From NCBI RefSeq assembly GCF_024166365.1, contig NC_064841.1:46247680-46311679 (forward strand): 64,000 bases of DNA, given 5' to 3'. Source of the DNA: Elephas maximus. Lineage: Eukaryota. The notes beneath the pieces are model-generated. The model made no database searches. It saw only the letters and a list, made by a program, of their open reading frames with translations, and was not told the DNA's origin. The number at the start of each line of letters is the position of its first letter. Positions within the stretch are counted from its first letter, which is position 1. Of this stretch, positions 5,762 to 54,332 are shown piece by piece. The translations under genes were made by a program, and so were the position numbers.

Positions 5762-5855
5762 CCCTTAGAAGCAAAACCAGTTTCAGCTATAAATATATAT
5801 ACAGACAGAGAAATTTATATAAATGAAATGGGTCACACAGTTGTAGAGGCTGCAG
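5762..5855 (+). repeat. Second, partial copy of repeat R (first ~95 bp), same orientation as 2967-3075
   Basis: TGTCTTAGGCCCTTAGAAGCAAAACCAGT...ATAAATATATATACAGACAGAGAAATTTATATAAATGAAATGGGTCACACAGTTGTAGAGGCTGC is ~75% identical to 2967-3075. It is truncated where satellite A begins. Confidence 0.45.
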
Positions 5856-8600
5856 TTTGCAAAGGCAAAGTTACCGGATATATTCCACGAAAGAGAACCC
5901 AAAATAAAGTTTCTTCCTTTCTACTTGATTATGTCAGAGGGTTTGATTAAGTCAGAGGGTTTATTTCTCTTATTGAAAAACGTGCACCCTAATGTTGCCT
6001 CTGCAGTCTCTTAGTTGGAAAAGAATGTGAAATTATTCCCATTCAAATACATGCAAACACTTGTGTGTTATAGGTTTTCATTATGCACTTTGTTTTACTA
6101 GTGCATGAATGTGCATTAACAATCTCTTAATGAGAACACAATACCGTTTCTCCTGTGCAAGAACAGGGGCTATAGCAATGTGGTTTTACTGAGTAAACCT
6201 TGTGTTTGCAAGAGGCAGTTATCAAATTCATTGCACGAAAGAGAAACCAAAATAGAGTTTCTCTCATTCTACTTGCTTAAGTCAGAGGATTTAAGTCTGA
6301 GGTTTTTTTTCTCTTATTGAAAAACATGCAAACTAAAGTTGGCCCTGCAGTCTCTCAGTTGGAAAAGGATGGAAAGTTACTCCCATTCAAATACACACAG
6401 ACACTGGGTTTTATAGGTTTTCATATTATATGCACTTTGCTTTACCTGGGGATGAATGTGGATTAACGATCTCTTAATGAGAACACAATGCAATTGTTCC
6501 TGTGCAAAAACAAGTGATGTAGTTTTGCTCAGTAAACTTTGTGTTTGCAAGGGACAAACTTATCAAATTCATTGCATGAAAAAGAAGCCAAAATACATTT
6601 TATCTCATTCTACTTGATTAAGCCAGAGGATTTGATCAAGTCAGAGGGTTTTCTCTCTTACTGAGAAACAGACAAGCTAATGTCATCTCTGCAGTCTCTT
6701 ACTTGGAAAAGAATGTAAAGTTACTCCAACTTAAAGTTGCAGTGTTACTCCCATTCAAATACTAGCAGACATTTAGGTTTTATAGGTTTTCTATACACAC
6801 TTTGTCTTACCTGGGTGTGAACGTGCATTAACAATCCCTTAACAAGAACATAATAACGTTTCTTCTGTCCATTAACAGTGGTTATTGCGATGTAGTTTTG
6901 CTGAGTAAACGTTGTGTTTGCAAAAGCCAAAGTTACCTAATTCATTGCATGAAAGAGAAATCAAAATAGAGTTTATCTCATTCCACTGGATATCAGAGGG
7001 TTTGATTACTTCAGAGGGTTTTTTTCTCTTATTGAAAAACATGCAAGCTAATGTTGCCTCTGCAGACTCTTGGTTGGAAAAGACAGTAAAGCTACTCCCA
7101 TTAAAATATACGCAGACACTTAGCTTTGACAGGTTTCCTATATGCACTGTTTTACCTCCGAGTGAATGTGAACTAACAATCTATTTATGAGAACACAATG
7201 AACTTTTCCTGTGCATAAACACTCCCTATAGAGATGTAGTTTTACTGAGGAAATCTTTGTTGCAAGAGGCAGAGTTCCCAAAATCATTGCGTGAAAGTGA
7301 AACCAAAATACAGTTTATCTCATTCTACTTGATTAAGCCAGAGGATTTGATCAAGTCAGAGGGTTTTCTCTCCTACTGAGAAACAGACAAGCTAATGTCG
7401 CCTCTGCAGTCTCTTAGTTGGAAAAGAGTGTAAAGTTACTCCAGCAGACACTTAGGTTTTACAGTTTTTCTATATGCACCTTGTTTTACCTGGGCGTGAA
7501 TGTGCATTAACCATCTGTTAACAAGAACACAATGACGGTTTTCCTGAGCATAAACAGCAGCTATAGCGATGTAGTTTTGCTAGGTAAACCTTGTGTTTGC
7601 AAGAAGCAAAGTTCCCTAATTCATTGCATGAAAGAGTAACCAAAATGCACTTTCTCTCGTTTTACTTGATTAAGTCGGAGTGTTCGATTAAGTCAGAGGG
7701 TTTTTCTCTTACTGAAAATCATGAAAGATAAAGTTGCCTCTGCCTTCTTTTAGTTGGAAGAGAATGTAAAGTTATTCCTACCAAAATACTTACAGAAATG
7801 TAGTTTTCATAGGTTTTCTATATGTACTTTATGCTTACCTTGGAGTAATGTGCATTAACAATCTCTTAACAGGAACAAAATTACATTTTTCCTGTGTATT
7901 AACAGTGCCTGTAAAGATATAGTTTTGCTGAGTAAACCTTATGCTTGCAGGAGGCAAAGTTTCCAAATTCAATGCATGAAAAGAGTAACCAAAATACAGT
8001 TTCTTTTGTTATACTTCATTAAGTCAGAGTGTTTGATTAAGGCTTTTTTCTCTTACTGAAAATCATAAAACATAAAGTTATCTCTGCCTTCTCTTAGTTG
8101 CAAGAGAATGTCAAGTTACTCCTATTCAAATACGTACAGACACTTGGGTTTTACAGGTTTTCAGTATGTACTTTCTCTTATCCAGGCGTGAAGGCACATT
8201 AACAATCTCTTAATGAGATCACTAAGCAGTTTGTGCTGTGCAGGAACAGCGCTAGCTATCGCTATGTAGTTTTGCTGAGTAAACCTTGTATTTTCCAGAG
8301 GCAAAGTTACCAAGTTCACTGCATGAGAGAAACCAAAACACTTTCGCTCATTCTACTTAAGTCAGAGGTCTTGATCAAGTCAGAGGTTTTTCTCTCTTAT
8401 TGAAGAACATGCAGGGTAATTTTGCCTCTGCAGGAACTTAGTTGGATAAGAATGTAAAGTTCCTCCCATTCAAATACGAGCAGACACGTAGGTTTTATAG
8501 GTTTTTTATGTACACTTTGTTTTCACTGGGCGTGAAGGTGCATTAGGAATCTCTTAACAAGAATAGTCAGAGAGTTCTTTCTTTCACCGAGAAACATGCA
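5855..8600. repeat. Satellite A, domain S1: ~345-bp units (three diverged ~115-bp sub-monomers), ~8 units
   Basis: The marker AAACATGCAAGCTAATGTTGCCTCTGCAGTCTCTTAGTTGGAAAAGAATG recurs at ~5975, 6320, 6670, 7030, 7390, 7720, 8070 and 8400. Within the unit, GTTTCTCTCATTC, GTTACTCCCATTC and CAGTTTTTCCTGTGC segments lie ~115 bp apart. Confidence 0.85.
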
Positions 8601-11600
8601 AGCTGATGTTGCCTCTGAGCTCTCTTATTTGGAAAAGAGTGTGTAGTTACACACTTTGAGCTGTCGAAAGGCACTTGGATTGGTTAGGATTTCACCATGC
8701 ACTTTGTTTTCCCTGGGCAACAGTGTACATTCACAATCTCTTAACGCTAACACTGTGAATTTGCTCCTTGCCAGCATAGCGCTATGGCGATGTAGATTTT
8801 CAAAGAAACCTTGCATTTCCAAGAGCAAATTACCGACTTCATTGCAGGAAAGAGAAAAGAGAAGACAGTGTCTCTCATACATCCTTACTTTTGTCAAAGG
8901 ACTGGATGAAGTCAGGGAGATCTTTCTATCACTGAGAAATATGCCAGCTGATGTTGCCTCTGAGCTCTCTTATTTGGAAAAGAGTGTGTAGTTACACATT
9001 CTGAACTGTGGAAAGACACTTGGGTTGGTTATGATTTCACCATGCACTTTGTTTCCCCTGGGCAACAATGTGCTCTCACAAGCACTTAACGCTAACACTA
9101 CGGACTTGTTCCTCCTCAAAGAACACGGCTACCACAGTGTAGTTTTCCTGAGGAAAGCTTCATTTGCAGGGCCAAATTTGCCGAGCTCATTGTAGGAAAG
9201 AGAAACGAAATGACGGTTTTCTCATTCTGACTGATTTTGTCAGAAGGCTGGATGAATTCGAGAATTATTTCTTTTACCGAGAAGCACGCAAGCTGATGTT
9301 GCTCTGAGCTCTGTTCTTTGGAAATAATGTAAACTGACATGCAATAAACTGAGGAAGGACACGAGTTTGCTAGGATTTCACTATGCACTGTGTTTCCCCT
9401 AGGCGTCAGTGTGCTCTCAGGATCTCTTAACGGTAACAATATGTACTTTTTTCCTACAGGAAGAGATGTTACTGGTTTGTACTTTGGCCTAGGAAACCTT
9501 GCTTCTGCAAGTGCAAAGTTAAAAGAGTTTCTGCAGGAAAGAGAATACAAAAGGCCGTTTTCTCCCTTGGCATCAGTGAGCTTTCACAATCTCTTAACGC
9601 TAACTCTATAAAGTTGCTCCTCTGCAAGCATAGCACTATGGAGATGTAGATTTTCAAAGAAACCTTGCATTTGCAAGAACAAACTACTGAGATCATTGCA
9701 GGAAAAAGAAAAAAGAAGACAGTTTCTCTCATACACCCTTCCTTATCTCAGAGGACTGAATGAAGTCAGGGAGTTCTTTCTTTCACTGAGAAACATGCAA
9801 GCTAATGTTGCCTCTGAGCTCTCTTATTTGAAGATAAGTGTGGCATTACACACTTTGAACTGTGGAAAGACACTTGGGTTGGTTTGGATTTCACCATGCA
9901 GTTTGTTTCCCCTGGGCAAGAACATGCATTCACAATCTCTTAAGGCTAACACTATGTAGTTGCTTGTCTACAAGGTTAGTGCTACCGCAATGTAGTTTCT
10001 CAGAAGAAACCTTGCATTCGCAAGAGCAAATTACCGAGCTCATTGCAGGAAAAAGAAAACAAAAGACAGTTTCTCTCATACTGCCTCCTTTTATCAGAAG
10101 ACGGGATGGGGTCAAGGAGCTCTTTCTCTTGCTGAGAAACATGCAAGCTGATGTTGCCTCTGAGCTCTCTTATTTGGAAAATATTGTGTAGTTACACACT
10201 TTGAACTGTGGAAAGACACTTCTTTGGTTAGGATTTCACCGTGCACTTTGTTTCCTCTGGGTGGCAGCAACGTGCTTTCACAACCATTTAACACTAACAC
10301 TATGAACTTGTTCCTCTTCAAAGAACACGGCTACTGCAGTGTAGATTTCCCGAGGAAACCTTGCGTTTGCAAGTGCCAAATTTGCTGAGTTCATTGTAGG
10401 AAAGAGAAACTAAATGACGGTTTTCTCATTCTGACTGGTTTCGACAGAAGACTGGACAAATTCAGAGAGTTCTTTCTTTCACTGAGAAACATCCAAGCTG
10501 ATGTTGCCTCTGCTCTGTTCTTTGGAAATAACGTAAAACTGGGGAAAGACACGGGTTTCCTAGGATTTCACTATGCACTGTGTTTTCCCTGGGCATCAGT
10601 GTGCTCTCAGGATTTCTTAACGGTAACAATATGTAGTTGTTTCTCTGCAGGAAGAGATGTTACTGGTTTGTAGTTTGGCCTAGGAAACCTTGCTTTTGCA
10701 AGTGCGAAGTTACCGAGTTCCTTCAGGAAAGAACACAAAACATGGTTCTAACCCTGGGCGTCAGTGTGCTTTCACAATGTCTTAACGCTAACACTTGAAG
10801 TTGCTCCTTGTAAGCACAGCATTACGGCGATTTAGATTTTCAAAGAAACCTTGCGTTTGCAAGAGCAAATTACCGACTTCACTGCAGTAAAGAGAAAAGA
10901 GAAGACAGTTTCTCTCATATAGCCTTGCTTTTCTCAGAGGACTGGATGAAGACAGGGAGATCTTTGTATCACTGAGAAATATGCAAGCTGATGTTGCCTC
11001 TGAGCTCTTTTATTTGGAAAAGAGTATGAAGTTACACACTTTGAACTGTAGAAAGACACAGGTTGGCTAGGATTTCACCATGCATTTTGTTTCCCCTGGG
11101 CAACAACGTGTTTCACAAGTTCTTAACACTAACACTACGGACTTGTTCCTCTTCAAAGAACAGGGCTATCGCAGTGTAGTTTTCCAGAGAAAAGCTTATG
11201 CTTGCAAGGGCCAAAATTGCAAAGCTCATTGCAGGAAATTGAAACCAAAAAATGGTTTCCAATTCTGACTGCTCCATCAGAGGACTGGACGAACTCAGAG
11301 AGTCTTTTCTTTCACAGAGAAACATGCAAGCAGAATTTTCCTCTGACCTCTGTTCTTTGGAAATAACATAAATTGTCATGATTAAACTATTGAAAGACAC
11401 AGGTTTGCTAGGATTTCACTATGCACAGGGTTTTCCTTGGGCACCTGTGTGTTCTCAGGATATCTTAACGCTAACACTACATAGTTGTTTTTCCACAGGA
11501 AGAGATGTGACTGGTTTGTAGTTTGGCCTAGGAAATCTTGCTTCTTCAAGTACAAAGTTAAAGAGTTCCTGCAGGAAAGAGAATATAAAAGGCCGTTTTC

Positions 11601-14600
11601 TCCCTGGGCATAAGTGTGCTTTCACAATCTCTTAACGCTAGCTTCTCTGCAAGCATAGTGCTACGGAGATGTAGATTTTCAAAGAAACCTTGCATTTGCA
11701 AGAGCAAATTATTGAGATCATTGCAGGAAAGAGAAAAGAGGAGACAGTTTCTCTCTTACAGTCTTGCTTTTCTCAGAGGACTGAATGAAGTCAGGGAGTT
11801 CTTTCTTTCACTGAGAAACATGCAAGCTAATGTTGCCTCTGAGCTCTCTTATTTGGAGACGAGTGTGGCATTCCACACTTTGAACTGTGGAAAGACACTT
11901 GGGTTGGTTAGGATTTCACCATGCACTTTGTTTCCCGTGGGCAACAAAGAGCTTTCACAACCACTTAACACTAACACTACGGGCTTGTTCCTCCAAATAA
12001 CACAGCTACCGCAGTGCAGTTTTCCTGAGGAAACCTTGCGTTTGCAAGGGCCAAATTTGCTGAGCTCACTGGAGGAAAGAGAAACTAAACGATGGTTTTC
12101 TCCTTCTGACTGGTTTCGTCAGAAGACTGGATGAAGTCAGAGTTATTTCTATCACTAAGAAACATGGAAGCTGATGTTGCCTCTGCTCTGTTCTTTGGAA
12201 ATAATGTAAATTGACATGCATTAAACTGCGGAAGGACACGGGTTTTGTAGGATTTCACTATGCACTGTGTTTTCCCTGGGCGTCAGTGTGCTCTAAGGAT
12301 TTCTTAACGGTTACAATATGTAGTTGTTTCTCTGCAGGAAGAGATGTTATTGGTTTGTCGTTTGGCCTAGGAAACCCTGCTTTTACAAGTGTAAAGTTAC
12401 CAAGTTCCTTCAGGAAAGAGAATACAAAAGGCGGTTTTCTCCCTGGGCATCACCGTGCTTTCAGAATCTCTTAACGCTAACACTATGAAGTTGCTCCTTG
12501 CAAGCATAGCTCTACGGCGGTGTAGTTTTTCATGGAAACCTTACATTTGAAAGAGCAAATTCCCAACTTCATTGCAGAAAAGAGAAAGAAGAAGACAGTT
12601 TCTCTCATACAGCCTTGCTTTTCTCAGAGCACTGGATGATGTCAGGGACATCTATCACTGAGAAATATGCAAGCTGATGTTGCCTCTGAGCTCTCTTCTT
12701 TGGAAATAACATAAATTGACATGCCTTAAACTGGGGAAGTACACGGGTTTCCCAGGATTTCTCTATGCACTGTGTTTTCCCTGGACATCAGTGTTCTCTC
12801 AGGATCTCTTAACGGTAACAATACGTAGTTGTTACTCCACAGGAAGAGATGTTACTGGGTTGTTGTTTGGCCTAGGAAACCTTGTGTGCAAGTGCAAAGT
12901 TACGAGTTCATGTAGGAAAGAGAGAGAATACAAAAGAACATTTTCTCTCTGGGTGTCAGTGTGCTTTCACAATCTCTTAACGCTAACACTGTGTAGTTGT
13001 TCCTCTTGAAGGATGGTGCTACGGCGATGTAGAATTTCAAAGAAGCCGTGCGTTTGCAAGAGCAAATTACCGACTTCATTGCAGGAAAGAGAAAAGAGAA
13101 GACAGTTTCTCTCATACGGCCTTGCTTTTCTCAGAGGACTGAATGAAGTCAGGGAGTTCTTTCTTTCACTGAGAAACAAGCAAGTTGATGTTGCCTCTGA
13201 GCTCTCTTATTTGGAGATGCGTGTGGCATTCCACACTTTGAACTGTGGAAGGATACCCGGGTTAGTTAGGATTTCACCATGCACTTTGTTTCCCCTGGGC
13301 AACAACGTGCTTTCACAACCACTAACACTACGGACTTGTTCCTCTTTAAAGAATATGGCTACTGCAGTGTAGTTTTCCTGAGGAAACCTTGCATTTCTGA
13401 GGGCCAAATTTCCTGAGCTCTTTGTAGGAAAGAGAAACCAAACAACAGTTTCTCATTCTGACTGCTTTCATCAGAGGACTGAACGAATTGAGAGAGTTCT
13501 TTCTTTCACTGAGAAACATGCAAGCTGATGTTTCCTCTGAGCTGTGTTCTTTGGAAGCAATGTAAATTATCACGCAGTAAACTACTGAAAGACACGGGTT
13601 TGAGTGGATTTCACTATGCACTGTATTTTCCCTGAGTGTCAACGTGCTCTCAAGATCTCTTCACAGTAACAATACGTACTTGTTTCTCTGCAGGGAGAGA
13701 TGTTACTGGTTTCTAGTTTGGCCTAGGAAACCTTGCATTGCAAGTGCAAAGTTACCGAGTTCCTGTGGGAAAGAATACAAAAGACCATTTTCTCCCTGGG
13801 TGTCAGTGTGCTTTCGCAATCTCTTAAGGCTAACACTCTGTAGTTCCTCTGGAAGGATAGTGCTATGGCGATGTAGATTTTCAGAGAAACCTTGCATTTG
13901 CAAGAGCAAATTACCAAGATCACTGCAGGGAAAAGAGAAGACAGTTTCTCTCATACTGCCTCCTTTTCTCAGAGCACTGAGTGAAGTCAGGGAGTTCTTT
14001 CTTTCCCTGAGAAACATGCAAGCTGATGTTGCCTCTGCTCTGTTCTTTGAAAATCACACAAATTGTCATGCATTAAACTGCTGAAAGACAAGGGTTTGCT
14101 AAGATTTTGCTATGCATCTTGTTTTCCCTGGGCATCTGTGTGCTCTCAGGATATCTTAATGGTACCACTACATAGTTGTTTCTCTGCAGGGACAGATATG
14201 ATGGCTTTGTAGTTTGGCCTAGGAAACCTTGCTTCTGCAAGTGCAAAGTTAAAGAGTTCCTGCAGCTAAGAGAATACAAAAGGCCGTTTTCTCCCTGGGC
14301 ATCAGTGTGCTTTCACAATCTCTTAACGCTAACTCTATAAAGTTGCTCCTACATAAGCATACCACTAAGGCGATGTAGATTTTCAAAGAAGCCTTGTGTT
14401 TGCAAGAGCAAATTACCGACTTCATTGCAGGAAAGAGAAAAGAGAAGACAGTTTCTCTCATACAGCCTTGCTTTTCTCAGAGGACTGAATGATGTCAGGG
14501 AGTTCTTTCTTTCACTGAGAAACATGCAAGTTGATGTTGCCTCTGAGCTCTCTTATTTGGAGACGAGCGTGCCTTTCCACACTTTGAACTGTGGAAAGAC

Positions 14601-16600
14601 ACTGGGTTGCTTAGGATGTCACCATGCACTTTGTTTCCCCTGGGCAACAACGTGCTTTCACAACCACTTAACGCTAACACTACGGACTTGTTCCTCTTCA
14701 AATAACACAGCTACCACAGTGTAGTTTTCCTGAGGAAACCTTGCATTTGCAATGGACAATTTTGCCGAGCTCATTGTGGGCAAGAGAAACCAAACAACGG
14801 TTTTCTCATTCTGACTGGTTTCCACAGATGACTGGACGAATTCTGAGAGTTCTTTCTTTCATTGAGAAACATGCAAGCCGATGTTGCCTCCGAGCTCTCT
14901 TCTTTGGAAATAATGTAAATTTACATGCCTTCAACTGGGGAAGTACACAGGTTTCCTAGGATTTCTCTATGTACTGTGTTTTCCCTGGGCGTCAGTGTTC
15001 TCTCAGGATCTAATGGTAACAATAGGTAGTTGTTACTCCACAGGAAGAGATGTTACTGGTTTGTAGTTTGGCCTAGGAAACCTTGCATTGCAAGTGCAAA
15101 GTTACTGAGTTCATGTAAGGAAGAGAATACAAAAGACCGTTTTCTCCCTCGGTGTCAGTGTGCTTTCACAATCTCTTAAGGCTAACACTGTGTAGTTCCT
15201 CTGGAAGGATAATGCTACCATGATGTAGATTTTCAAAGAAGCCTTGCATTTGCAAGAGCAAGATACCCAGATCACTGCGGGGAAGAGAAAAGACAGTTTC
15301 TCTCATACTGCCTCCTTTCCTCAGAGGACTAGATGAAGTCAGGGAGTTCTTTCTTCAACTGAGCAATATGCAAGCTGATGTTGCCTCTGAGCTCTCTTTT
15401 TTGGAAAAGAGTATGAAGATACACACCTTGAAGTGTGGAAAGACACTTGGGTAACTTAGGATTTCACTATGCACTTTAGTTTCCCTGGGCAAAAATGTGC
15501 TTTCACAATCTCTTTTCCTTAACACTACATTCATGTTCCTCTTTAAAAAACAGGGCTACCGCAGTGTAGTTTTCCTGTGGAAAGTTTGCGTTTGCAAGGG
15601 CCATATTTGCTGAGCTTATTGTAGAAAGAGAAACCAAACAACTGTTTCCCATTCTGACTGCTTTCGTCAGAGGACTGGACGAAGTCAGAGTTCTTTCTTT
15701 CACTGAGAAACATGCAAGCTGGTGTTTTCTCTGAGCTCTGTTCTTTGCAAGTAATGTAAGTTGTCACACATTAAACTACTGTAAGACACGGGTTTGCTTG
15801 GATTTCACTATGCACTGTGTTTTCCCTGGGGTGTCAATGTGCTCTCAGGGTCTCTTAACGGTAACAATACGTAGTTGTTTCTCTGCAGGGAGAGATGTTA
15901 TTGCTTTGTAGTTTGGCCTAGGAAACCTTTCTTTTGCAAGTGCAAAGTTACTGAGTTCCTGCAGGAAACAGAATACAAAAGACCCTTTTCTCCTTGGGCT
16001 TCAGTGTGCTTTCACAATCTCTTAGCACCAACACTGTTTCCTTGCAAGGGTAGCGCCACCGTGTTGCCATTTTTCGGAAGAAACCTTGCTTTTGCAAGAG
16101 CAAATTACCTAGTTCATTGCAGGAAAGAGAAAAGAAAGTTTCTCTCATACTGCCTGCTTTTCTCAGAGGACTGGATAAAGTCAAGGAGTTCTTTTTTTCA
16201 CTGAGAAACATGCAAGCTTGTTGCCTCTGAGCTCTTTTATTTGGAAAAGAGTGTGTAGTTACACACTTTGACCTGTGGATAGACATCTGGGTTGTTTAGG
16301 ATTTCACCATGCACTTTGTTTTCCCTGAGTGACAACGTCCTTTCACAAGCTCTTAATGCTAACACTACAGATTTGTTCCTCTTCAAAGAACACGGCTACT
16401 GCCGTGTAGTTTTCCTGAGGAAACTTTGGGTTTTCAAAGGCCACATTTGCCAAGCTCTTTGTAGGAAAGAGAAACCAAATGAGAGTTTCCCATTCTGACT
16501 GCTTTCATCAGAGGACTGGATGAAGCCAGAGAGTTCTTTCTTTCACTGAGAAACATGCAAGCTGATGTTGCCTCTGAGCTCTGTTCTTTGTAAATAACAT
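8600..16600. repeat. Satellite A, domain S2: ~845-bp higher-order repeat (~2.5 x 345 bp), ~9.5 units
   Basis: The marker (C/T)ATTAAACTG(C/G)GGAAGGACACGGGTTTGCTAGGATTTCACTATGCACTG recurs at 9348, 10540, 11385, 12222, 12727, 13590, 14075, 14930, 15775 and 16610. Spacings are mostly 835-863 bp, with deletion variants (485, 505) and one expanded unit (1192). Units 845 bp apart are ~85-92% identical by eye; adjacent sub-units are much more divergent. Confidence 0.8.
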
Positions 16601-37903: not shown

Positions 37904-39131
37904 TTATTTACAGATTAACCTCTCTGGTTCCCTGTTGCAATTGTTTTTGTTTGGATAGTCCTTGAGAGTACATTTACTAGGTTGGTATCTGGCTGGTAAA
38001 ATTTTGCATCCTAGATTCAGGCTGTGGTCTGATGTTGTTTGTTCTCCTTTTAATAATTCTTGTAAATTTGGTATGGTTTTTACATATTCCCTCAATTTTT
38101 GTTTATCTGGAAATGTCCTTATTTCACCATCATATTTGAATGAAAGTTTTGCAGGATATATTATTCTTGGTTGGCAATTTTTTTCTTTCAAGGTTTTGTA
38201 TATGTCATCCCATTGCCTTCTTGCCTGCAGTGTTTCTGCCAAATAGTCAGAGCTTAGTCTTATTGTTTCTCCTCTGTATGTGACTTTTTGTTTTCCTTGA
38301 GCTGCTCTCAGGATTTTTCTTTGTCTTTGGTTTAGCAACTGTGATTATGATATACCTTGGTGTTTTTCTTTTGGGGTCTATCTTATATGGGGTTCATTGA
38401 GCTTCTTGGGTGGTCAGCTTTTCATCTTTCATGATATTAGGGACGTTTTCTGTCGACAATTCTTCAGTGATCCTCTCTGTGTTTTCTGTTTTCTCTCCCT
38501 GCTCTGGGCCACCAATCACTCACAAATTTTTCCTTTTGATTGTATCCCACGTAATTCTCAGGGTTTCTTCATTTGTCTTCATTCTTTTTTCTGATTTCTC
38601 CTCAAACAGAGTTGTATCCAACTGTTTGTCCTCCACTTTGCTGATCCTTTCTTACATCATTTCAAACCTGCCCTTCAGTCCTTTGATGACATTGTCCATT
38701 TCTGAAATCTCGTTGTTTATGCTTTGGATGTCTAATTGTTTTTGTATTATTTCTAGTGTGAATTTATTTTGGCATTTTTTTTCCTGAATTCTTCCATTTT
38801 TTAATCATTTTTTCCATGAATATTTCTGCCTTTTCTGTAAATTTGTCTATTTTTTTCCCTCATTTTTGCCTGCTTTTTGCTTTACCTCTTGGATTACTCT
38901 GAATATTAGAGATTTGAATTCCCTGTCAGGTAGTCCCAGTGTGTTTTCTTCTACTGGAAGGTCATCTGGTGTTTTATTTTGGACACCTGCTGGAACCATC
39001 CTGTCCTTTTTTTTAAAATATGTTTTTATATTGTCTGTTGTCTCTGGGACATTCAGTAGTTGTTCATTCATTGATTGTAGATTTGTTTGTTTCACCCTGC
39101 TTTTTTGTTTTATCTTGTTATGTCTGAGCAA
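37904..39131 (-). pseudogene. L1 ORF1 remnants (C-terminal RRM/CTD region and N-terminal coiled-coil)
   Basis: ORFs 37904-38338 and 38847-39131 (...KKKDRMVPAGVQNKTPDDLPVEENTLGLPDREFKSLIFRVIQEVKQK); antisense to the + strand ORFs 38397-38787. Confidence 0.75.
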
Positions 39132-39559
39132 GCAGATTGTGCATTCTTTGTTGTTTGCTCATCTGTAATCACAGTACTTTTCAACTCCTTTTCCAATGGG
39201 CAGGGCCAGTCACTCAGCTATGGGTCAGCTGAAAAGGAGGGGCTGGGATGGGTTGTTTGTGGCACCTGCTAGGGCAGACAGGGTGGGCCAGGAATCAGTG
39301 CTCGGCAGGTTCCGGTAGGCCATGTCCATGCTGCTCAGGGGTGTGATGTTCCACGCAAGGTGCAGTTAGGCAGGAAAGGGGGAAGTTTGTAATGTGTGGA
39401 GCTAATTGGGGTATGGAAAGAGGAGAGAGGATAGAGAAACAAGAGCCAAAAACAAACAAAGGAAAAAAATGAAGAGCACTAAGGGAGCTTTCCATTGGAG
39501 TGGGGAGATGAGAAACCAAGAAAAGCCGAAAGGTAAAATCGTGGAAAAAATGAAAAAGA

Positions 39560-40530
39560 AAAAATAACTAGATAAAAATTTGGAAAAGATAGGAAAAAAA
39601 AGTCCCCAGGAGTCCCACCAGTGGGTCCAGGAAGGCTTGGGAAGTGGCTCCCAGTCTGCACAGTATAGGCTTGCTAGAGGGGTATAGATGTCACACAGCA
39701 CTGGGTATCCAGGAGACAGGAAAAGAAGCTAAGTATAAAGAGGTGAGAACTGAGAAATGAAGAAAGATAGAAAGGGAAAAATAGAAAAGAAAGAAAAAGA
39801 GAAATGCCCCCAGAGATCCCAGCTACATGGCTGCACAGATTGGTGAACTGGCTCCTAAGCCATGCAGTGCAGCTTGGCTAAAAGAGTCTCCCAAGCCATG
39901 AAAAGAAAGAGAAAACAAGAGAAGGGGGGTAAATCCCCAGGGATTCCACTAGTGTGGTGTCCTGGGCCAGGGGAGTGGTTCCCTAGTCAAGCCGGGCTTC
40001 ACAGTCTTTCAAGAGGAAGCAAAGATGGCACACAGAACAAGGTGCTCAAGGGAGGAGGTGGATGTGCTGGGAGGAATGCGAGAAACCAAAAGAAATGGAA
40101 AAAACCAACACCAGCTCAGGGGGCTGCCCAGTGTGGGCAGGGTGAATCCAAGTGGCCTGAGGCCAAAGCAGTTGCCTCCCGGCCAAGAGACTGCAGCATG
40201 TGGGAACAGAGGAGGCCAAAGCGAGGAGGTGAAGAAGGGTGGGAGTTAGGAAAGCATATATCACTCATTACCAGGTGCTCTGTCTCCTGCTGGGAACTTT
40301 GTGAAGCTGCTTTCCCATACTCCCTGTCTGCTGATCGCTGATGTGAGTGGGGTGAATCCAAGCGGCATGGACACTACACTTCCCAGCTGATTGAGCCACC
40401 ACAGCAAGCCAGGAAGCTCAGAGGTAGAGCAGCAGGGAGAGGAGGGGGTGAGAAAGCATGTATCACTGGTTACCAGGTGCTTTGTCTACTGCTGGGAGCT
40501 CCACGAAGCTGCTTTCCTGTGCTGCCTGTC
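39560..40530 (-). repeat. Tandem monomers in the L1 5'UTR (three ~100-110-bp units 39590-40010; ~90-bp pair 40250-40340 / 40440-40530)
   Basis: Repeated AAAGTCCCCAGGAGTCCCACCAGTGGGTCCAGGAAGGCTTGGGAAGTGGCTCCCAGTCTGCACAG, ATGCCCCCAGAGATCCCAGCTACATGGCTGCACAGATTGGTGAACTGGCTCC and AATCCCCAGGGATTCCACTAGTGTGGTGTCCTGGGCCAGGGGAGTGGTTCCC. Second pair: (A/G)AAAGCATATATCACT(C/G)(A/G)TTACCAGGTGCT(C/T)TGTCT(C/A)CTGCTGGGA(A/G)CT. Confidence 0.5.
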
Positions 40531-40769
40531 CACCTATCCCCGATAGGAGTCTGAGATGGCAGATCCTTCCTGTGTTAGCTGATAGGGGCCCTCCACACGT
40601 ATCTCTCCTTGCTCTCTGTCCTCTGTCAGTTTCTTATTCCATTCAGTGTTTGGGTGAGTTCTTTATGTCTTCATTTGACACTTCAGGTTCCAGGAATGAC
40701 GTTTGTCTGTTTTACTTAGTTTATGGGGTCTTTGTTGTGGAGGGACGGCCTATTGTTTCTGTCTTTGGT

Positions 40770-40781
40770 GCCATTTTGGCC
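40770..40781 (-). promoter_or_regulatory. YY1-like motif (rc GGCCAAAATGGC) at the 5' terminus of the full-length minus-strand L1
   Basis: Positional homologue of the motifs at 2628-2640 and 48683-48693. It overlaps the putative target-site duplication, so the exact L1 5' end is ambiguous by a few bp. Confidence 0.35.
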
Positions 40782-40788
40782 TGAAGTC

Positions 40789-41708
40789 ATTATTGAGAGT
40801 TTTTATCAGGTATGTGTGTTGGACTTTGTCAAATGCCTCTTCTGCGTCAATTGAGATGATCATGTGATTCTTTTATTTATGTGGAGAATTACATTGAATA
40901 AATTTCTAATTTTGAATCATCCTTGTATACCTGCTATGAATCCTACTTTGTCGTGGTGTATTTTTTGTGATATAATTCTGAATTCTATTGGCTAGAATTG
41001 TGTTGACAATTTTTGCATCTATATTCTTTAGAGATATTGGTCTCTAATTCTCTTCTTTCATGGTGTCTTTGCTTAGTTTTGGTATTAGGGTTTTGCTGGC
41101 TTCATAGAGTGAATTCAAAAGTATCCCTTCCTTTTCTATGTTATGAAAGAGTTTCAGTAGTGCTGGTGTAAGCTCTTCTCTAAATAATTCAGAGAATTCT
41201 CCAGTGAAGCAATCTGGGCTGGGTTTTTTTTTGGTTGTTGTTTGGAGGTTTTTTAAATTAACTTTTTGATCTCTTCTCTAGTTATGGGTGTGTTCAGATT
41301 CTCAACATCATTTTGCATTAGTTTGGGTAGTTAGTGTGTTTCTAGAAATTTGTCTATTTCCTCTAGGTTTTCAAACTTGGTGGGGTATAGTTTTTTCATA
41401 GTACTCTGTTATGATCCTTTTTATTTCAGTTGGATCTGTTGCAATGTCACTCATTTCATTTCTTATTTGGGTTATTTGTGTCTTCTCCTATATTTCTTTT
41501 TGTCAGTTTGGCCAGTGGTTTGTCGAGTTTGTTGATCTTTTCAAAGAACCAACTTTTAGTTTTGTTGATTCTATTGTTTTTCTATTCACTATTTCATTTA
41601 CTTCTGCTCTGATCTTTATACTTTCCTTTTTTCTTTTGCTGTTCTCTTTGTATTTCCTTGAGTTATGTAGCTAATGTTTTGATTTTGTCCCTTTTTTCTT
41701 TTTTGATG
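40789..41708 (-). mobile_element. Older L1, ORF2 fragment B (region N-terminal to the RT core); continues fragment A across the nested full-length L1
   Basis: 40790-41700 is colinear with 35760-36690 of the full-length L1 at ~80% identity. Its low-coordinate end (rc ...DAEKAFDK...) and the high-coordinate end of fragment A (...TLNKLGI...YIKAIYDKPTANIILNG) are adjacent positions in L1 ORF2. Confidence 0.75.
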
Positions 41709-44700
41709 TAACACAATGTTTTTATAACAGGTCAAATTCTGTTGTCTTAATCTACTTGAATGAAAGCAACTGTATATTGATTTCTCTTGTCTGATTGGGG
41801 GAACTTGTGCATTCTTGCTAGCCAAGGTTACTTTGAAAACCTGAAATGCTTTTGTAGACATGTACTTAAATGAGTAAAGTCTTATTTTCTCTGTGTGAAA
41901 ACTTGTAAGGAATATGCCCACCCATGTAGGACAAAGTACAGTGTGAAAACAAGAAAAACTCTGGTGGCTTCACGTGCTCAAACAGGAGAAAGGGTTCATC
42001 CTTTTCTCAACCAAATAATGTATAAGGAACATTCCTCAGCATATAACACAAAGTGTTTTTTGATAACAAGGAAAATGTGACTTCATCTACTTGAATATGA
42101 GAAACTGTATGTTTGTTTCTCTTTCATGTAATGTCTTAGGAATGTTTGCATCATTGAAGGCCAAGGCTTACTTTGAAAACCTAAAAGCATTTTGACATTC
42201 TCTGCTTGCACAAGCGAAATTCTACATCATTTTCTCTTTCCGTGTAACACAAAGCACAGTTTGAAACCAATAAGCTCTGATGGCTTCGCACACTTGAATG
42301 GCAGAAATTGTCCATTCTTTTCTGAATCAGAGAATGAATAGGGAACATTCCTGTTCATGTAACACAGTGCTTTAATAACTTTCGTCTTAATATTCTTGAA
42401 AGAAAGGAACAATATTGGCTTCTCTTTCTTGCATGGTTTGGGAACTTTTGAGTGTTTTACACCATGCTTTACTTTGAAAACCTAAAGCGCTTTTGCCGTC
42501 ATGTGCTTGAATGAAGAAAACGCTACATTGTTTTCTTCGCAGAATATATAGGGAGCAATTATGTCCGTGTAACACACATGCAGATTGAAAACAATAAAAC
42601 TCTAATGGCTTAATGTACTCAAATGGAAGAAAGTTTACACTGTTTTCTCAATCAGAGAACCTGTAGAGAACATTCCTGTGCATGTAACATACAGTGTTTT
42701 TGGATAACAGGCAAAAGGCTTGTGGCTTCATCTACTTGAGTGAGAAAACTGTATATTTGTTTCTCTTTCATTCAAAATATTGTGAACCTTCATGCCATTG
42801 TAAGTCAAGGTTTACTTTGAAAACCTACAACAATTTTAACCTCCTGGACTTAAATGGGAGAAACTGTACCTTATTTTACCCTCAGAGAATGTCTTGAGCA
42901 TTCCTGTCCTTGTAAAACAAAGTGTGCTTTGGAAATGAGTAAAGCTCTGGGGTCTTCATATACTTGCATGAGAGTATCAGCACAGTCTTTTTGCAGTCAG
43001 GGAATATATATGGAACATTCACATGTAACACGATTGGGCTTTTTTTAAAAAACAGGTAAAATACCTATGACTTCCTCTACTTCGATGAGAGAAACAGTAC
43101 ATTGATATTGGGAATTTAGTGCTCCTGAAAACTGAAGTTTATTTTGAAAAGCTAAAACACTTTGCTGTCATGTACTTGAATGGGAGAAACTCAACACTGT
43201 TTTCTCCTTCAGGGAATGTGTAGGGGACATTCACGTCAGTGTAACACAAAGTAGAGTTTGAAAAGTTGTCAAACCCTAGTGGCTTCACATACTTGAATAG
43301 GAGAAACTGAACATTGTTTTCTCAAGCAGGGAATGTATAAGGAACATTCCCATCCTTGTAAGTGTACTTCGAAAAGAAGTAAAACTCTGGTGGTTTCATG
43401 TACCTGAATTGGAGAAATCGAACATGCTTTTTGAAATCAGAGAATGTATAGGTAACATTCTCGTGCCTAGAACACACACTGTGTTCTTTGATAATAGGTA
43501 AAACCCTTGTGAATTTATCTACTTGAATGAGAGAAACTACATTTTCTTCTCTTTCATTTACTGGGAACTTTTCCATCCTTTTAAATCAAGATTTACTTGG
43601 CAAACCTAAAACTCTTCTGCCATCCTGAACTTGAGTGGAAGAAACTACCTCATTTTCTCCATCAGAAAATATAGTGCGAACTTTCAGGTCCTTGCAACAA
43701 GAGGTGTACTTAGAAAACAAAACGGGTGGCATGCATGTGGAGTGGGGAGGACCTGTACATTATATTCTCATTCACAGAATGTAAAGACAACATCCTCATG
43801 CACATAACACAAAGTGTTTTTATATAACAGGTAAAATGCTTTTGATTTTCTGAACTTGAAATCGAGTTGGGAACTTGGTTTCCCGTTCAAACAACATATT
43901 GGTAACTTTCGATTCTTGTAAGCCAAGTTTTGCTTTGAACACCTAAAACGCCTTTGATGTCATGTACCTGAAATGGAGAAACTGTCCATTGTTTTCTCCT
44001 TTAGAGAATGCAGTGTGAACTTTCCAGTAATGGATACACAAGAGTACTTTGAACACAAACCAATCTTTGATGGCTTCATGGACTGGAACGGGAGGAGCTG
44101 TACTTTCTTTTCTCAATCATAAACTGCAAAGGGAACATTCCAGGGCATGTATCACAAAGCAATTTATACAACAGATAAAACGCTTGTTACTTTATCTACT
44201 TGAAGGAGAGAAACTATTTACTGGTTAATCTTTCCTGCAACGTATTGGGAACATTTGCATTTTTGTAATTCACGGTTTGGTTGAAAACCTAAAATGATTT
44301 TTCTGTCATGTACTCAAACAGGTGAAACTCCACACTGTTTTCTCCTTCAGAGAATATATAGAGAACATCACTTCCGTGTAACACAGGTGCAGCTTGAAAA
44401 CAAGTAAATGACTGGTATCTTCATGTATCTGAGTGGGAGGAACTGTGCATTCTTTTCTCAATCACAGAATACATAGGGCACATTCCCATGCATGTAACTC
44501 AAAGTGACTTTTGATAACAGATGACTTCATCTACTTGAATGAGAGCAACCATACTGGTTTCTCTTTCAGGCAGTGCAGTGGGAGCTTTTGTGCTCCTGTA
44601 GACCAAAGTGTACTTTGAAAAGCTAAAGCATTTTGCCATCACGCACTTCAACTGGAAAACCTCTACACTGTTTTCTCCTTCAGAGAATGTGTAGGGAACA

Positions 44701-47700
44701 TCATTTCTGTGTAACACAAAGTGCAGTTTCAAAACAAGTAAATCACTGATGGCTTCACATATTTGAATGGGAGGAACAGTGCAATCTTTCTGCAATCACA
44801 GAAGGTATAGGGTACATTCTCGTGCATGTACCACAAAGTGCTTTTTCATAAGAGATGACTTCATCTACTTGAATGAAAGGAACCATACTGGTTTCTCTTT
44901 CATGCAATGTATTGGGAACTTTTGCGTTCTTGTAAACCAAGTTTTACTTTGAAAATCTAAAATGCTTTTGCCATCATGCAATTGGACAAAAAACACCCTA
45001 CACTGCTTCTGCCTTCAGAGATTGTATAGGGAACTTTCAAGTCTGTGGATGACAAACTGCAGTATGAAAATAAGTAAAACTGTATTGGCTTCACGTGAAA
45101 GGGAGGAACTGTCTGTCCACCACTTTCTCAAATAATGTTTAATGAACATTCCCCAGTGTGTAGCACAAATAGTATTTTGATAACAGGTGAAACACCTATG
45201 ACTTTATCCACTTGAATGGAAGAAAGCATATGTTGCTTTCACTTTCCTGAAACATATTTGGAATTTTCACATCCTTCTAAGCCAAGTTTTAAATGGAAAA
45301 TCTAAATGACTTTTGTCATCAAAGACTTGAACAGGAGAAACTTTACATTGTTTGCTCCATCAGAAAATGTAGTGTCACCCTTCCAGTCCTTACCACACCA
45401 AGTATACTTTGAAAACAAGTAAAACTCTGGTGGCTTCGCGTACTTCAACGGGAGAACCTCTCAATTCTTTTCTGAATCTGAAAATGTATATGGAACATAC
45501 CTGTCCATGTAACACAGTGATTTTATAACTTTTGTCTTAGTCTGCTTGAATGAAAGCAACTGTATATTGGTTTGTCTTTCTTGTTTGGAGAACTTGCGTG
45601 TCCTTATTGGCTAAGGTTTGCTTTGAAAACCTGAAATGCTTTTGCTATCATGTACTGAAATGGATACTGTCTACATTGTTTTCCCTTTGTGAAAATGTGT
45701 GAGGAATATGCCCGTCTGCCTAAGACAAAGTGCGGTAAGAAAGCAAGTACAACTCAGTTGGCTTCATGTACTCGAACGGGAAAAAGTGTTCATCCTTTTC
45801 TCAACCAAATAATGTATAAGGAACATTCCCAAGCATGCAACACAGAGTGTTTTTTGATAACATTAAAATGCTTGAGTATGAGAAACTGTATGTTTCTCTT
45901 TCATGTAGTGTCTTGGGAACGTTTGCATCCTTGAAGGCTAAGGTTTACTTTGAAAACTTAAAAGTGTTTTGACATCATCTGCTTGCACAAGGGAAATTCT
46001 ACATCATTTTCTTTTTCTGAGGATATATAGGAAACAATCACTTCCGTGTAACACAAAGCACAGTTTGAAACCAATAAACTCTGGTGGCTTCATACACCTA
46101 AATGGCAGAAACTGTCCATTCTTTTCTGAATCAGAGGATGAATGGGGAGCATTCCCATCCGTGTCGCACAGTGTTTTAATAAATTTTGTCTTAATATTCT
46201 TGAATGAAAGAAATGATATTGGCTTCTCTTTCTTCCGTTGTCTGGGACCTTTCACATGCCTTACACCATGCTTCTCTTTGAAAACCTAAAAAGCTTTTGC
46301 TGTCATGTATTTGAAGGAAGAAAACTCTACCTTGTTATCTTCTTCAGAGAATATACAGGGAACAATTATGTCCTTGTAACACACGTGCAGACTGAAAACA
46401 GTAAAACCCTGGTGGCTTCATGTCCTCAAATGGGAGAAAGTTTACATGATTTTCTCAATCAGAAAACTTATATGGAACATTCCTGTGCATGTAACATGGG
46501 ATAACAGGCAAAAAATACTTATGACTTCATTTACTTGAGTGAGAGAAACTCTATATTGGTTTCTTTTTCATTCAAAATATTCTAAACTTTCACATCGTTC
46601 TAGGCCAAGCTTTACTTTGAAAGCCTGCACCACACTTTTACCCTCCTGGACGTAAACGGGAGAAACTCTACCGGGTTTTTACCTTCAGAGAATATGTCTT
46701 GAGCATTCCCATGCTTCTAACACAAAGTCCACTTTGAGAACAAGTAAAGCTCTGGGGGCTTCATATACCTGTATGAGAGTATCTGCACAATCTTTTTCGC
46801 AATCTGAGAATATATATGGAACATTTATGTTCAACATGTAACATGACTAGTTTTTCTTGCGGAACAAGTAGAAGGCCTGTGACTTCCTCTACTTCACTGA
46901 GAGAAACTGTATGTTGGTACTGGGAATTTTGCGTTCTTGAAAGCCAAGGTTTATATTGAAAAGTTAAAAAGCTTTGCTGTCATGTACCTGAACGGGAGAA
47001 ACTTGACACTTTTTCCTCCTTCACAGAATGTGTAGGGAACATTCCTGTCCTTGTAACACAAAGTATACTCTATACAAGTAAAACTCTGGTGGCTTCAAAT
47101 ACCTGAACTTGAGAAACTGTGCGTGCCTTTCACAATAAAAATGTACAGGCAACATTCCTGTGCCTGGAACACACACAGTGTGCTTGTGAATTTATCTACT
47201 CGAGTGAGAGAAATTTATCTACTCAAGTGAGAGAAACTGTACGTTTTCTTCTCTTTCAAATAGTTCTTGGGAGCTTTCCCATCCTACTAAACAAGATTTA
47301 CGTGGAAAACCTACAACGTTTCTGCTGTCTTGAGCTTGAACAGAAGAAATAAATGACTTTGTTTCTCCCTGAGAAAATGTACTGCAAACTTTCAGGTCCC
47401 CGCAATACAAAGCTTACTTTGAAAACAAGTGAAACTGGAGGCTTCATGTATGGAATGGAAGGAACTGTACATTTATTTCTCAATTGGAGAATGCAAAAGT
47501 AACACTCCTGTGCATGTAACACAATGTTTTTATATAACAGGTAAAATGATTTTGGCTTTCTCTACTTGAATGTGAGAAACTACATATTGCTTTCTTGTTC
47601 AAACTTTCAATTTTTGTAAGCCAAGTTTTATTTTGAACACGTCAAACACCTTTGCCATCGTGTACTTGAAAGGAGAAACTTTCCATCCTTTTCTCAATCA

Positions 47701-47997
47701 GATAATGTATAAGGAACATTCCCCAGTGTGTAACACAAAGTGTTTTTTGATAACAGGGAAAACATTTGTGACTTTATCTACTTGATTGGGAGAAAGCTTT
47801 CTCTTTCCTGCAATGTGTATGGAATTTTCGTGTCCTTGTAAACCAAGGTTTAAATGGAAAATCTAAATGTCTTTTGCCGTCACGGCCTTGAATGGAAGAA
47901 GCTCTGCATAGTTTGCTCCTTCAGAAAATGTAGTGCCAACCTTCTAGTCCTTATAGCGCCAAGTATAGTTTGAAAACAAATAAAACTGTCCTAAGCT
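41709..47997. repeat. Satellite B: ~115-bp monomers in ~345-bp trimers; ~3.8-kb higher-order repeat, ~1.65 copies; inverted relative to satellite A
   Basis: Monomer: GTAACACAAAGTG(C/T)A(G/C)TTTGAAAACAAGTAAAACTCTGGTGGCTTCA(T/C)GTACTTGAATGGGAGAAACTGTACATTGTTTTCTC(C/A)(T/A)TCAGAGAATGTATAGGGAACATTCCTGTCCAT. Trimer period, e.g. 44478 to 44820, is 342 bp. Long-range markers repeat at 41705/45520, 42705/46502, 43040/46850 and 42960/46790, i.e. every ~3.80-3.83 kb, at ~85-90% identity. Confidence 0.85.
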
Positions 47998-50292: not shown

Positions 50293-50319
50293 CTAATATC
50301 AAATCACATAAAGAAGCAG

Positions 50320-51076: not shown

Positions 51077-51140
<64 letters not shown>

Positions 51141-53216: not shown

Positions 53217-53973
<757 letters not shown>

Positions 53974-54320: not shown

Positions 54321-54332
54321 ATACAAAACCAG

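Follow-up and report, generated by a model that had tools for sequence, protein, structure and literature searches.

Diverged TMAsat-like satellite arrays in opposite orientation at a locus of Elephas maximus

The 64,000-nucleotide stretch of Elephas maximus DNA analysed here (contig NC_064841.1; hereafter the window) carries two tandem-repeat arrays, satellite A on the + strand and satellite B on the – strand, which appear to be diverged sub-families of one old ~345-bp repeat, reversed relative to each other. Their register and profile matches indicate that both belong to the TMAsat-like repeats of Paenungulata (sirenians, elephants, hyraxes), an already described family. We consider it probable that the locus is explained by a single diverged TMAsat-like trimer family with variants A and B, of which B was reversed, probably by an inversion, with LINEs inserted between the two.

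Homology between satellites A and B

The reverse complement of the B consensus (B-rc) gave a Smith-Waterman score of 109 against the A consensus, compared to 18.1 ± 2.6 for dinucleotide shuffles (z = 35; 0 of 500 reached 109), while the forward B consensus scored 20 (z = 0.6). Profile HMMs gave the same strand-specific picture. In satellite A, the B profile had 47 matches on the – strand and a single one on the + strand, with no matches in reversed A and 0–2 in each of 20 shuffles. Conversely, the A profile had 24 – strand matches in satellite B, which together covered 5512 of its 6292 bp (88%), and neither the + strand nor any of 20 shuffles yielded a match. Both profiles had 0 matches in the non-satellite DNA of the window. 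The kinship in opposite orientation proposed in the initial annotation was confirmed by the comparison against shuffled controls that it called for, at the consensus and profile levels.

The similarity extended over the whole 344-bp unit rather than being confined to a single short motif. Across the unit, the consensus of the A1/A3 blocks (see below) was 72.6% identical to B-rc (z = 23 against dinucleotide shuffles), the B-rc profile tiled the A consensus as three full-length sub-monomers (E = 1.4e-6, 9.8e-21 and 1.3e-6), and single A-profile matches in B covered profile positions 2–332, 7–311, 30–343 and 3–343. A resemblance by chance or composition, for example through a shared A/T-rich short motif, would be in keeping with the individual BLAST cross-matches, which are short and marginal (E of 1e-4 to 1e-8). 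The shuffle, reversal and strand controls, together with the 88% coverage of B by the A profile, rule this reading out, and we give it practically no chance. The earlier description of A and B as distantly related was right in kind and too weak in wording, given a unit identity of 72.6% when the A sub-types themselves share 80%. Ruiz-Ruano et al. reportedly placed satellites with consensus identities of 50–80% in one 'superfamily' (2016); A1/A3 and B-rc lie within this range at 72.6%, and A1/A3 and A2 share 80.4%. Three of the four strings quoted in the initial annotation were found with no more than 3 mismatches, and the fourth had no match at this threshold and by eye resembles the B-rc consensus.

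Layout and relative age of the arrays

Satellite A (344-bp unit, + strand) occupies two stretches, 5855–18192 and 23880–26716, as delimited by TRF and the A profile. Its start directly adjoins a degenerate telomere-like (CCCTAA)n tract (3500–5750, + strand), in which TRF detected 6-bp ACCCTA/CCTAAC arrays with 60–69% matches. Between 3801 and 5750, CCTAA occurs 44 times, compared to 12.7 ± 3.1 times in shuffles, and TTAGG is absent. Further left, the ORFs at 1450–2519 had no significant protein domain. The first block, A1 (5855–8565, + strand), consists of 8 units of ~344 bp (TRF period 344) without higher-order structure, with a mean unit identity of 75.9% and A-profile E-values of 1e-79 to 1e-103. 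At 8565 the phase leaps from profile position 284 to 97, so that the out-of-phase A1/A2 border is a junction, with no gradual passage from one type to the other.

Block A2 (8565–16430, + strand) is organised as a higher-order repeat (HOR) of ~845 bp, made up of a unit of type X, a unit of type Y and a third unit without profile positions ~60–238. Its autocorrelation peaked at lags of 839–841, and full units alternated with A-profile matches split into positions 3–59 and 239–341. Mean identity was 84.7% among X units (maximum 92.7%) and 81.4% among Y units, compared to 72% between X and Y and 65–67% between A1 and A2. These values point to A2 as the most recently homogenised part of satellite A. 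The right end of A2 consists of irregular + strand units of a type between A2 and A1/A3 (16431–18192, units 26–29), and the left stretch stops at profile position ~90 (at 18192). A non-satellite interruption without A or B profile matches follows (18193–23879), beyond which satellite A restarts ahead of a unit start at 23902. Because the phase is not resumed, the interruption is not a simple insertion. Its translated fragments, scanned up to the last ~0.6 kb on the + strand and ~3 kb on the – strand, contained no Pfam domain.

Block A3 (23880–26716, + strand), supported by A-profile matches, comprises 8.2 units of the A1 type (TRF period 347). Its first five units alternate as ~690-bp dimers up to 25.6 kb, units 30, 32 and 34 being 85–88% identical to one another and units 31 and 33 84%. 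Such a dimer pattern was found only here (23.9–25.6 kb), A1 and B repeating at ~344 bp and A2 at ~845 bp. Unit identity was 76.6% within A3 and 73.6% between A1 and A3. On reading the junction, we found the right end of A3 to be cut off by an L1 at 26716.

Satellite B (41706–47997, – strand) contains 57 monomers of ~115 bp, or about 18 trimer units, and retains a clear 115-bp periodicity. Monomers at lags 3, 6, 9 and 12 were ~66% identical (66.6% at lag 3), compared to ~61% at other lags, which bears out for B, as for A, the ~345-bp unit of three sub-monomers reported initially; the gap of ~15 kb between the arrays (26716 to ~41706) was likewise as described. Within B, monomers 1–13 paired best at lag +34 (identity 75–88%, mean 80.5%), revealing a segmental duplication whose left copy lies at 41775–43315 (– strand) and whose right copy lies 34 monomers (~3.9 kb) further on, at ~45.68–47.1 kb. 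A local – strand repeat of 334 bp, equal to three monomers (44327–45094, 2.3 copies, TRF period 334, 81% matches), showed lag-3 identities of 79–85% and contains the best A-profile matches in B (E = 7e-28 and 2e-27); it is locally younger than the remainder of B.

Ranked by identity, the arrays form an age gradient, with A2 HOR copies up to 93% identical, A1/A3 units ~76% and B 66.6% at lag 3. Judged by this divergence, B is old and decayed. The A1/A3 and B blocks have a G+C content of ~36–37%, A2 one of up to ~43%. Searches for structured RNA and tRNA genes in the window returned 0 Rfam matches at gathering thresholds and 0 ARAGORN genes, and of 22 contigs with a single match to ATTGCAKGAAAGAGAAACC in a metagenome scan, 0 matched the A or B profiles.

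An ancestral trimer and the TMAsat family

We compared the order of the sub-monomers (a, b and c) between the arrays. They were cut by alignment columns, as cutting by B-profile matches was unworkable for A2 with its too diverged 'a' sub-monomer. A and B scored 312 in the a-b-c register (72.9% identity) and 149 and 144 in the rotated registers; the register of the B trimer consensus had been set with the A profile, which could slightly favour collinearity, while the letters of that consensus came from B alone and the raw A-profile matches were equally collinear. Against TMAsat1, A scored 121 in the a-b-c register and 11 and 22 when rotated; against TMAsat2 the scores were 129, 13 and 38. Identities between counterparts were 77% for b, 75% for c and 67% for a (random expectation 50.6 ± 2.6%), and for b and c the positional counterpart was also the best match.

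[quoted passage not shown] The initial annotation had envisaged one ancestral ~115-bp monomer that gave rise to two families. The common ancestry stands; the sequence of events does not, with the trimer preceding the A/B split. Independent building of a ~345-bp trimer in each family from a free ~115-bp monomer would accord with the 115-bp periodicity kept by B, with the 67–83% likeness of its three sub-monomers and with the match of the B-rc monomer profile to all three A sub-monomers. It predicts no favoured register, however, whereas one register scored at least twice as high as the others, A-profile matches ran collinearly through nearly whole B units and both manatee TMAsat halves fitted the same register. 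We therefore regard independent trimer formation as highly improbable. The a and b sub-monomers are 83% identical in B compared to 57% in A. This likeness may reflect secondary homogenisation in B; the sequence alone also allows a retained ancestral state.

TMAsat is the centromeric satellite of manatees and dugongs, located by FISH at sirenian centromeres, with a published consensus of 685 bp; diverged TMAsat-like copies, in short arrays with LINE-1 at their flanks, have already been reported from elephants as well as hyraxes (Valeri et al. 2021, PMC8421680). An nhmmer search of the window with the TMAsat consensus gave 53 matches (E down to 3e-15), confined to A (34 on the + and 1 on the – strand) and B (18, all on the – strand), so that 52 of 53 fitted A on the + and B on the – strand. 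Alignments ran over positions 2–672, those in A covering positions 2–669 over ~690 bp, with two A units aligning to one TMAsat unit. Identity of A and B to the TMAsat consensus was ~55–61% (global z of 4.7–12.2), and neither was clearly nearer to TMAsat1 or TMAsat2. The TMAsat unit falls into two halves, of ~332 and ~355 bp (about 2 × 343), that are related to each other, and the B-rc profile found 5 of the 6 expected ~115-bp sub-monomers in it, at a spacing of 108–121 bp. Together with these matches, the shared register identifies A and B as TMAsat-like.

The ~690-bp dimer pattern of A3 resembles TMAsat, and the L1s at both facing edges of A and B agree with the reported arrangement in elephants, where TMAsat-like arrays are nearly always LINE-1-flanked (PMC8421680). 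In contrast to the 687-bp dimer of TMAsat, the basic unit at this locus is ~344 bp, and G+C content is lower (~36–37%, up to ~43% in A2, compared to 45.5%). Annotations should treat 'satellite A' and 'satellite B' as a single TMAsat-like family present in two orientations, both for masking and for naming. What is new, if modest, is the finding that units of the TMAsat type, including the manatee half-units (~340 bp), are trimers of an older ~115-bp monomer; PMC8421680, the only paper describing the TMAsat family, makes no mention of ~115-bp sub-monomers. The trimer structure moves the origin of the family one step back and could aid searches in other afrotherians. The overall significance is small, amounting to a tidier annotation and one structural detail for the TMAsat-like family.

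The tRNA-like SINE at 54144–54511 is presumably AfroSINE-like, and this SINE and the RTE-type reverse transcriptase described below form a context that fits Afrotheria. Elephant is rich in both RTE1 and AfroSINE (PMC6007223).

Origin of the strand switch and comparison with centromeric satellites

The 15-kb spacer between A and B (26716–41705) is LINE-derived, with Pfam RVT_1 domains on both strands, inverted L1–L1 matches and no satellite profile matches. Translated fragments outlined a 5'-truncated L1 starting at 26716 (+ strand), an RTE/BovB-type reverse transcriptase at ~29.2–31.0 kb (+ strand), an L1 fragment at 31.1–33.1 kb (– strand), a near full-length L1 at ~33.9–40.6 kb (– strand; Pfam L1 ORF1 dsRBD domain at 37907–38338, – strand) and an L1 fragment adjoining B at 40.9–41.7 kb (– strand); the L1 or RTE label of single fragments comes from reading these translations. 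A protein search with an L1 reverse transcriptase fragment returned thousands of RVT_1 fragments from ENA, at most 74% identical, and the contig of the best match was ~75% identical at the DNA level. Both facing edges, the right of A3 and the left of B, adjoin 5'-truncated L1s, the truncations lying at different ORF2 positions ~150 bp apart. The LINE contacts fall at unrelated satellite phases (profile position ~51 at the A3 edge and ~119 at the B edge). Derivation of the satellite from its LINE neighbours was rejected, the profiles having 0 matches in any LINE of the window.

In the history that we favour, a ~115-bp monomer would have been amplified, and three neighbouring copies would have become the 345-bp unit before the paenungulate lineages split. 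The local array may then have diversified by unequal exchange into the monomeric A1/A3 type, A2 and B, with A2, as a younger ~845-bp HOR, perhaps expanding between its A1 and A3 flanks. B was most likely reversed by an inversion, one breakpoint of which lay within the old array or next to it. It would no longer have been homogenised at the unit level and would have decayed, save for the 3.9-kb duplication and the short 334-bp repeat, while its neighbouring sub-monomers were probably partly homogenised with each other. Nested insertions of L1 and RTE elements would have followed, at the array edges and in the space between them. The inversion is not directly visible in the window, where the A and B profiles found 0 satellite remnants inside the spacer and no inverted duplication of unique flanks marked a second breakpoint. 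A large palindromic duplication with A and B as arms was rejected because the inverted matches between the outer flanks were only L1 or SINE pieces (for example 1–831 with 50290–51078), and also because the satellite/L1 junctions lie at different ORF2 positions.

Without any local inversion, A- and B-type arrays could have been seeded separately, for instance by transduction, by insertion of a segment from elsewhere or as mobile-element cargo, and have landed in opposite orientation. The truncated L1s at both facing edges agree with this account, the A1/A2 border is likewise an out-of-phase junction, and the A and B consensus sequences are 27% diverged, so that their local history need not be shared. 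The differing L1 truncation points, on the other hand, mean that the two edges have no shared satellite–TE junction, the satellite profiles match no LINE in the window, and arrays of 6–15 kb are longer than any repeat internal to a LINE could be. Since a local origin also explains related arrays 15 kb apart more simply, we hold separate seeding to be unlikely, if conceivable. Regions rich in satellites and LINEs are easily misassembled, and the strand switch could in principle be an artefact, with one block assembled the wrong way round. This is hardly credible, as the window has no N gaps, B is not a flipped copy of A but a variant in its own right that carries duplications of its own, and both B junctions run on into ordinary LINE or unique sequence.

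No canonical CENP-B box was found in the window, 0 copies matching all 9 of the 9 conserved bases. [quoted passage not shown] A functional centromeric satellite is not supported, given the lack of a canonical box and a reported elephant centromere repeat of 936 bp (PMC4053949). The locus is decaying heterochromatin with the usual marks of age, and no cellular function is implied. The (CCCTAA)n tract beside a layered array, the older inverted B nearby and the centromeric position of the family in sirenians suggest a rather doubtful further possibility, namely that the locus is what is left, in decayed form, of a centromere of the paenungulate ancestor beside a former chromosome end. If this were true, Paenungulata would have had the 115-bp trimer as their ancestral centromeric repeat, and an ancient telocentric end or a point of fusion would lie at this site.

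Among other mammals, sloths are members of Xenarthra, a group frequently regarded as sister to Afrotheria. SATCHO1, the centromeric satellite of two-toed sloths, has a monomer of 117 bp, similar in length to the ~115-bp sub-monomer (PMC7644632). Homology was rejected, the published primers (40/117 bp) scoring no higher than shuffles against the A, B and TMAsat consensus sequences, and the match in length appears coincidental.

The comparison with primate centromeres drawn in the initial annotation is a fair analogy as regards strand switches and L1 insertions in diverged alpha satellite, and does not extend to a centromere core, of which there is no sign here. Unlike the flanks of human centromeres, nothing at this locus points to an active centromere nearby. 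The repeats also have no sequence relationship to alpha satellite, whose monomer is 171 bp compared to ~115 bp and whose arrays span megabases in human compared to kilobases at this locus. In human T2T-CHM13, diverged alpha satellite gathers inversions and L1 insertions, and the younger homogenised HORs are without them (doi 10.1101/2021.07.12.452052). The strand switch, the L1 and RTE insertions and the local HORs seen here are what this work leads one to expect of old satellite layers. The likeness lies both in the strand switch and L1 insertions of the old arrays and in the layered expansion, with the youngest block, A2, placed between the older A1 and A3 of the same type.

Strand-specific homology of the two satellites

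The window consists of mammalian DNA rich in repeats and free of N gaps; Tandem Repeats Finder together with self-comparison delimited two satellite regions in it. Satellite A (unit ~344 bp) occupies 5855–18192 and 23880–26716 on the plus strand, and satellite B lies at ~41.7–48.0 kb on the minus strand, its homology to A being in reverse complement. By iterated nhmmer, B consists of 57 monomers of ~115 bp arranged head to tail (41706–47989), with a mean identity of 71.6% to their 117-bp consensus. For the blocks of A, termed A1, A2 and A3, we used a 344-bp consensus of the A1/A3 type (n = 16 units) and a 340-bp consensus of the A2 type (n = 21 units).

In Smith-Waterman alignment, the reverse-complemented B consensus (B-rc) scored 109 against the A consensus, a value that none of 500 dinucleotide shuffles reached (18.1 ± 2.6, z = 35), whereas the forward B consensus stayed at shuffle level (score 20, z = 0.6). 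On the A arrays, the B-monomer HMM gave 47 minus-strand matches and a single plus-strand match (E = 0.74); it gave none in the window's non-satellite DNA, none on reversed, non-complemented A and 0–2 per shuffle (20 shuffles). Conversely, the 24 matches of the 344-bp A profile in B were all on the minus strand and took in 5512 of the array's 6292 bp, with no plus-strand match in B and none in 20 shuffles. Along the A consensus, the B-rc profile matched three sub-monomers at full length: a (~48–169, E = 1.4e-6), b (170–283, E = 9.8e-21) and c (284 wrapping to 47, E = 1.3e-6). B itself had a three-monomer periodicity, with identity of ~66% at lags 3, 6, 9 and 12 vs ~61% at other lags. Because the shuffle, reversal, strand and profile-coverage tests agree, the A/B similarity is real, strand-specific and as wide as the whole unit, beyond one short motif. 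The initial annotation had described A and B as families of opposite polarity sharing a ~345-bp, three-sub-monomer unit, and this description holds. Three of the four strings it quoted were present at ≤3 mismatches; the fourth had no match at that threshold, and its likeness to the B-rc consensus is one seen by eye, unaligned.

Age of the trimer and kinship with TMAsat

Matches of the A profile ran collinear through almost entire B units; for example, B 44625–44936 corresponded to A-profile positions 2–332 (E = 2e-27) and B 42468–42775 to positions 30–343. Over all columns, the B-rc trimer and the A1/A3 consensus shared 72.6% identity (z = 23); the A sub-types (A1/A3 vs A2) were 80.4% identical at the consensus level. 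Rotating the B trimer by one or two sub-monomers lowered its global score against A from 312 to 149 and 144. In the sub-monomer matrix, where random pairs gave 50.6 ± 2.6%, b and c each matched their positional counterpart best (77% and 75%). By these results the common ancestry proposed in the earlier account holds, but the 345-bp trimer was in place before A and B separated, so that this account, in which a 115-bp monomer diversified into the two families, has the order of events wrong. Sub-monomers within A were only 53–57% alike, barely above random. Within B they were 67–83% alike, and B_a was about equally near to A_a (67%) and A_b (68%) and 83% identical to B_b, which suggests that neighbouring sub-monomers were partly homogenised in the B lineage.

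Manatees and dugongs have TMAsat as their centromeric satellite (PMC8421680). Its 687-bp unit falls into two related halves, ~332 and ~355 bp long (TMAsat1 and TMAsat2), which were 55.8% identical to each other. The published 685-bp consensus starts ATTCACCACATGAAAGAGAAAGCAAAATACAG, and its counterpart in the A consensus is AATTCATTGCATGAAAGAGAAACCAAAATACAG. An nhmmer search with the TMAsat consensus gave matches confined to the A (plus) and B (minus) arrays, with 52 of 53 fitting this pattern, and its alignments in A spanned TMAsat positions 2–669 over ~690 bp. Consensus identity to the TMAsat halves was 54–61% (z = 4.7–12.2). The a-b-c register scored 121 against TMAsat1 (rotated registers 11 and 22) and 129 against TMAsat2 (13 and 38), and of the six sub-monomers expected in TMAsat, the B-rc profile found five, spaced 108–121 bp apart. 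On the strength of these matches, the shared register and the sub-monomers within TMAsat itself, A and B are TMAsat-like repeats, and the trimer is older than the split of the Elephas copies in the window from the sirenian satellite. The TMAsat-like family had already been described, a fact that the interpretation in the initial annotation did not take into account. The TMAsat paper makes no mention of a ~115-bp sub-structure (PMC8421680), which is a modest novelty; what is new is limited to this sub-structure of TMAsat-type units and a further locus-level example.

The elephant centromere repeat has been reported as 936 bp (PMC4053949), so we rejected A and B as that repeat. Kinship with the 117-bp sloth satellite SATCHO1 was likewise dropped, as a comparison over 40 bp from primers gave no similarity. 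The window contained no canonical CENP-B box; the closest match, in one A3 copy, had 8 of 9 conserved bases. At the site homologous to the first CENP-B-like motif of TMAsat, the A and B consensus each had 7 of 9 (counted by hand).

Layers within the arrays

A1 (5855–8565, plus strand) has a monomeric organisation, its units being 75.9% identical to one another. In the A1 units, sub-monomer a repeatedly carries an 18-bp stretch in duplicate (TTGATTAAGTCAGAGGGT x2; 5925–5962, 6614–6651, 7329–7366 and 7668–7702), which extends this sub-monomer to ~122 bp; B lacks the duplication. At the A1/A2 boundary (8565) the phase shifts from profile position 284 to 97, which indicates that A2 begins at a junction and not by gradual passage from A1. 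[quoted passage not shown] Copies of type X reached 92.7% identity, which makes A2 the youngest layer of the locus. Irregular plus-strand units intermediate between the types follow at 16.4–18.2 kb. A non-satellite stretch (18193–23879) then interrupts satellite A; translated fragments covering most of it gave no Pfam match, and the satellite phase is not resumed across it. A3 (23880–26716, plus strand) is of the A1 type, with 73.6% identity to A1 units, and its first five units (23902–25635) alternate two types, with within-type identity of 85–88% and 84%.

B is the most decayed array (lag-3 identity 66.6%). Inside it, a segment of ~1.5 kb is duplicated (41775–43315 and 45680–47100), the two copies being displaced by 34 monomers (~3.9 kb) and ~80% identical. 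A short 334-bp repeat spans 44327–45094.

Flanks, strand switch and known systems

At 26716 an L1, recognised from a translated fragment and starting within ORF2, cuts off A3. In the ~15-kb spacer between A3 and B, elements were assigned by Pfam matches or otherwise by reading translated fragments: an RTE/BovB-type reverse transcriptase (29.2–31.0 kb, plus), an L1 3' half (31.1–33.1 kb, minus), a near full-length L1 with endonuclease, reverse-transcriptase and ORF1 regions (33.9 to ~40.6 kb, minus) and an L1 ORF2 fragment adjoining B (40.9–41.7 kb, minus). Both minus-strand fragments may derive from a single older element that the full-length L1 split. The stretch from the truncated L1 to the RTE fragment holds a 269-bp unit in 2.0 tandem copies (77% matches, 28562–29106). 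Long L1 copies at 33900–40600 (minus) and 50290–58600 (plus) are ~73% identical over several kilobases, each with many stop codons. Within the plus-strand L1, a 178-bp unit in 2.0 tandem copies (54144–54511, 83% identity) includes a tRNA-like SINE head (GGTGGAATAGTGGTTAAGAGC...GGTCAGCAGTTCGAATCCACCAG), which ARAGORN did not call as a tRNA and which we take to be AfroSINE-like. The RTE-type reverse transcriptase and this SINE fit an afrotherian host; RTE1 and AfroSINE are plentiful in elephant (PMC6007223). Rfam and ARAGORN searches found nothing.

Directly left of A1 lies a degenerate, strand-uniform (CCCTAA)n tract (~3.5–5.75 kb; 44 CCTAA and 0 TTAGG, with 12.7 ± 3.1 CCTAA in shuffles), possibly an ancient interstitial telomeric sequence or what is left of a former chromosome end. 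To its left, 1450–2519 holds overlapping ORFs of 121–238 aa (43–47% G+C) with no significant Pfam match, and 1–831 is an inverted L1-like fragment.

The L1s at the A3 and B edges are truncated ~150 bp apart in ORF2; neither junction is therefore a copy of the other, and the inverted matches of the outer flanks are L1 or SINE pieces only. No footprint of an event reversing B is left at the array junctions or among these matches. The reading we favour, at about even odds, is that part of an old array was inverted locally; separate seeding of A and B, landing in opposite orientations, is possible, and a misassembly behind the strand switch is unlikely. Diverged satellite blocks with strand switches and L1 insertions are usual in old heterochromatin (doi 10.1101/2021.07.12.452052), and by this analogy those of the window would be ordinary.

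Diverged TMAsat copies in elephants and hyraxes form short arrays of ≤18 units with LINE-1 at their edges in almost every case (PMC8421680); the window arrays fit this type in their low identity to TMAsat and their LINE-1 flanks. The ~690-bp dimer period of the first five A3 units resembles the 687-bp TMAsat unit. Although the window arrays are at kilobase scale only, the older A1 and A3 flanking the younger A2 higher-order repeat recall the layered expansion of human centromeric arrays (doi 10.1101/2021.07.12.452052).
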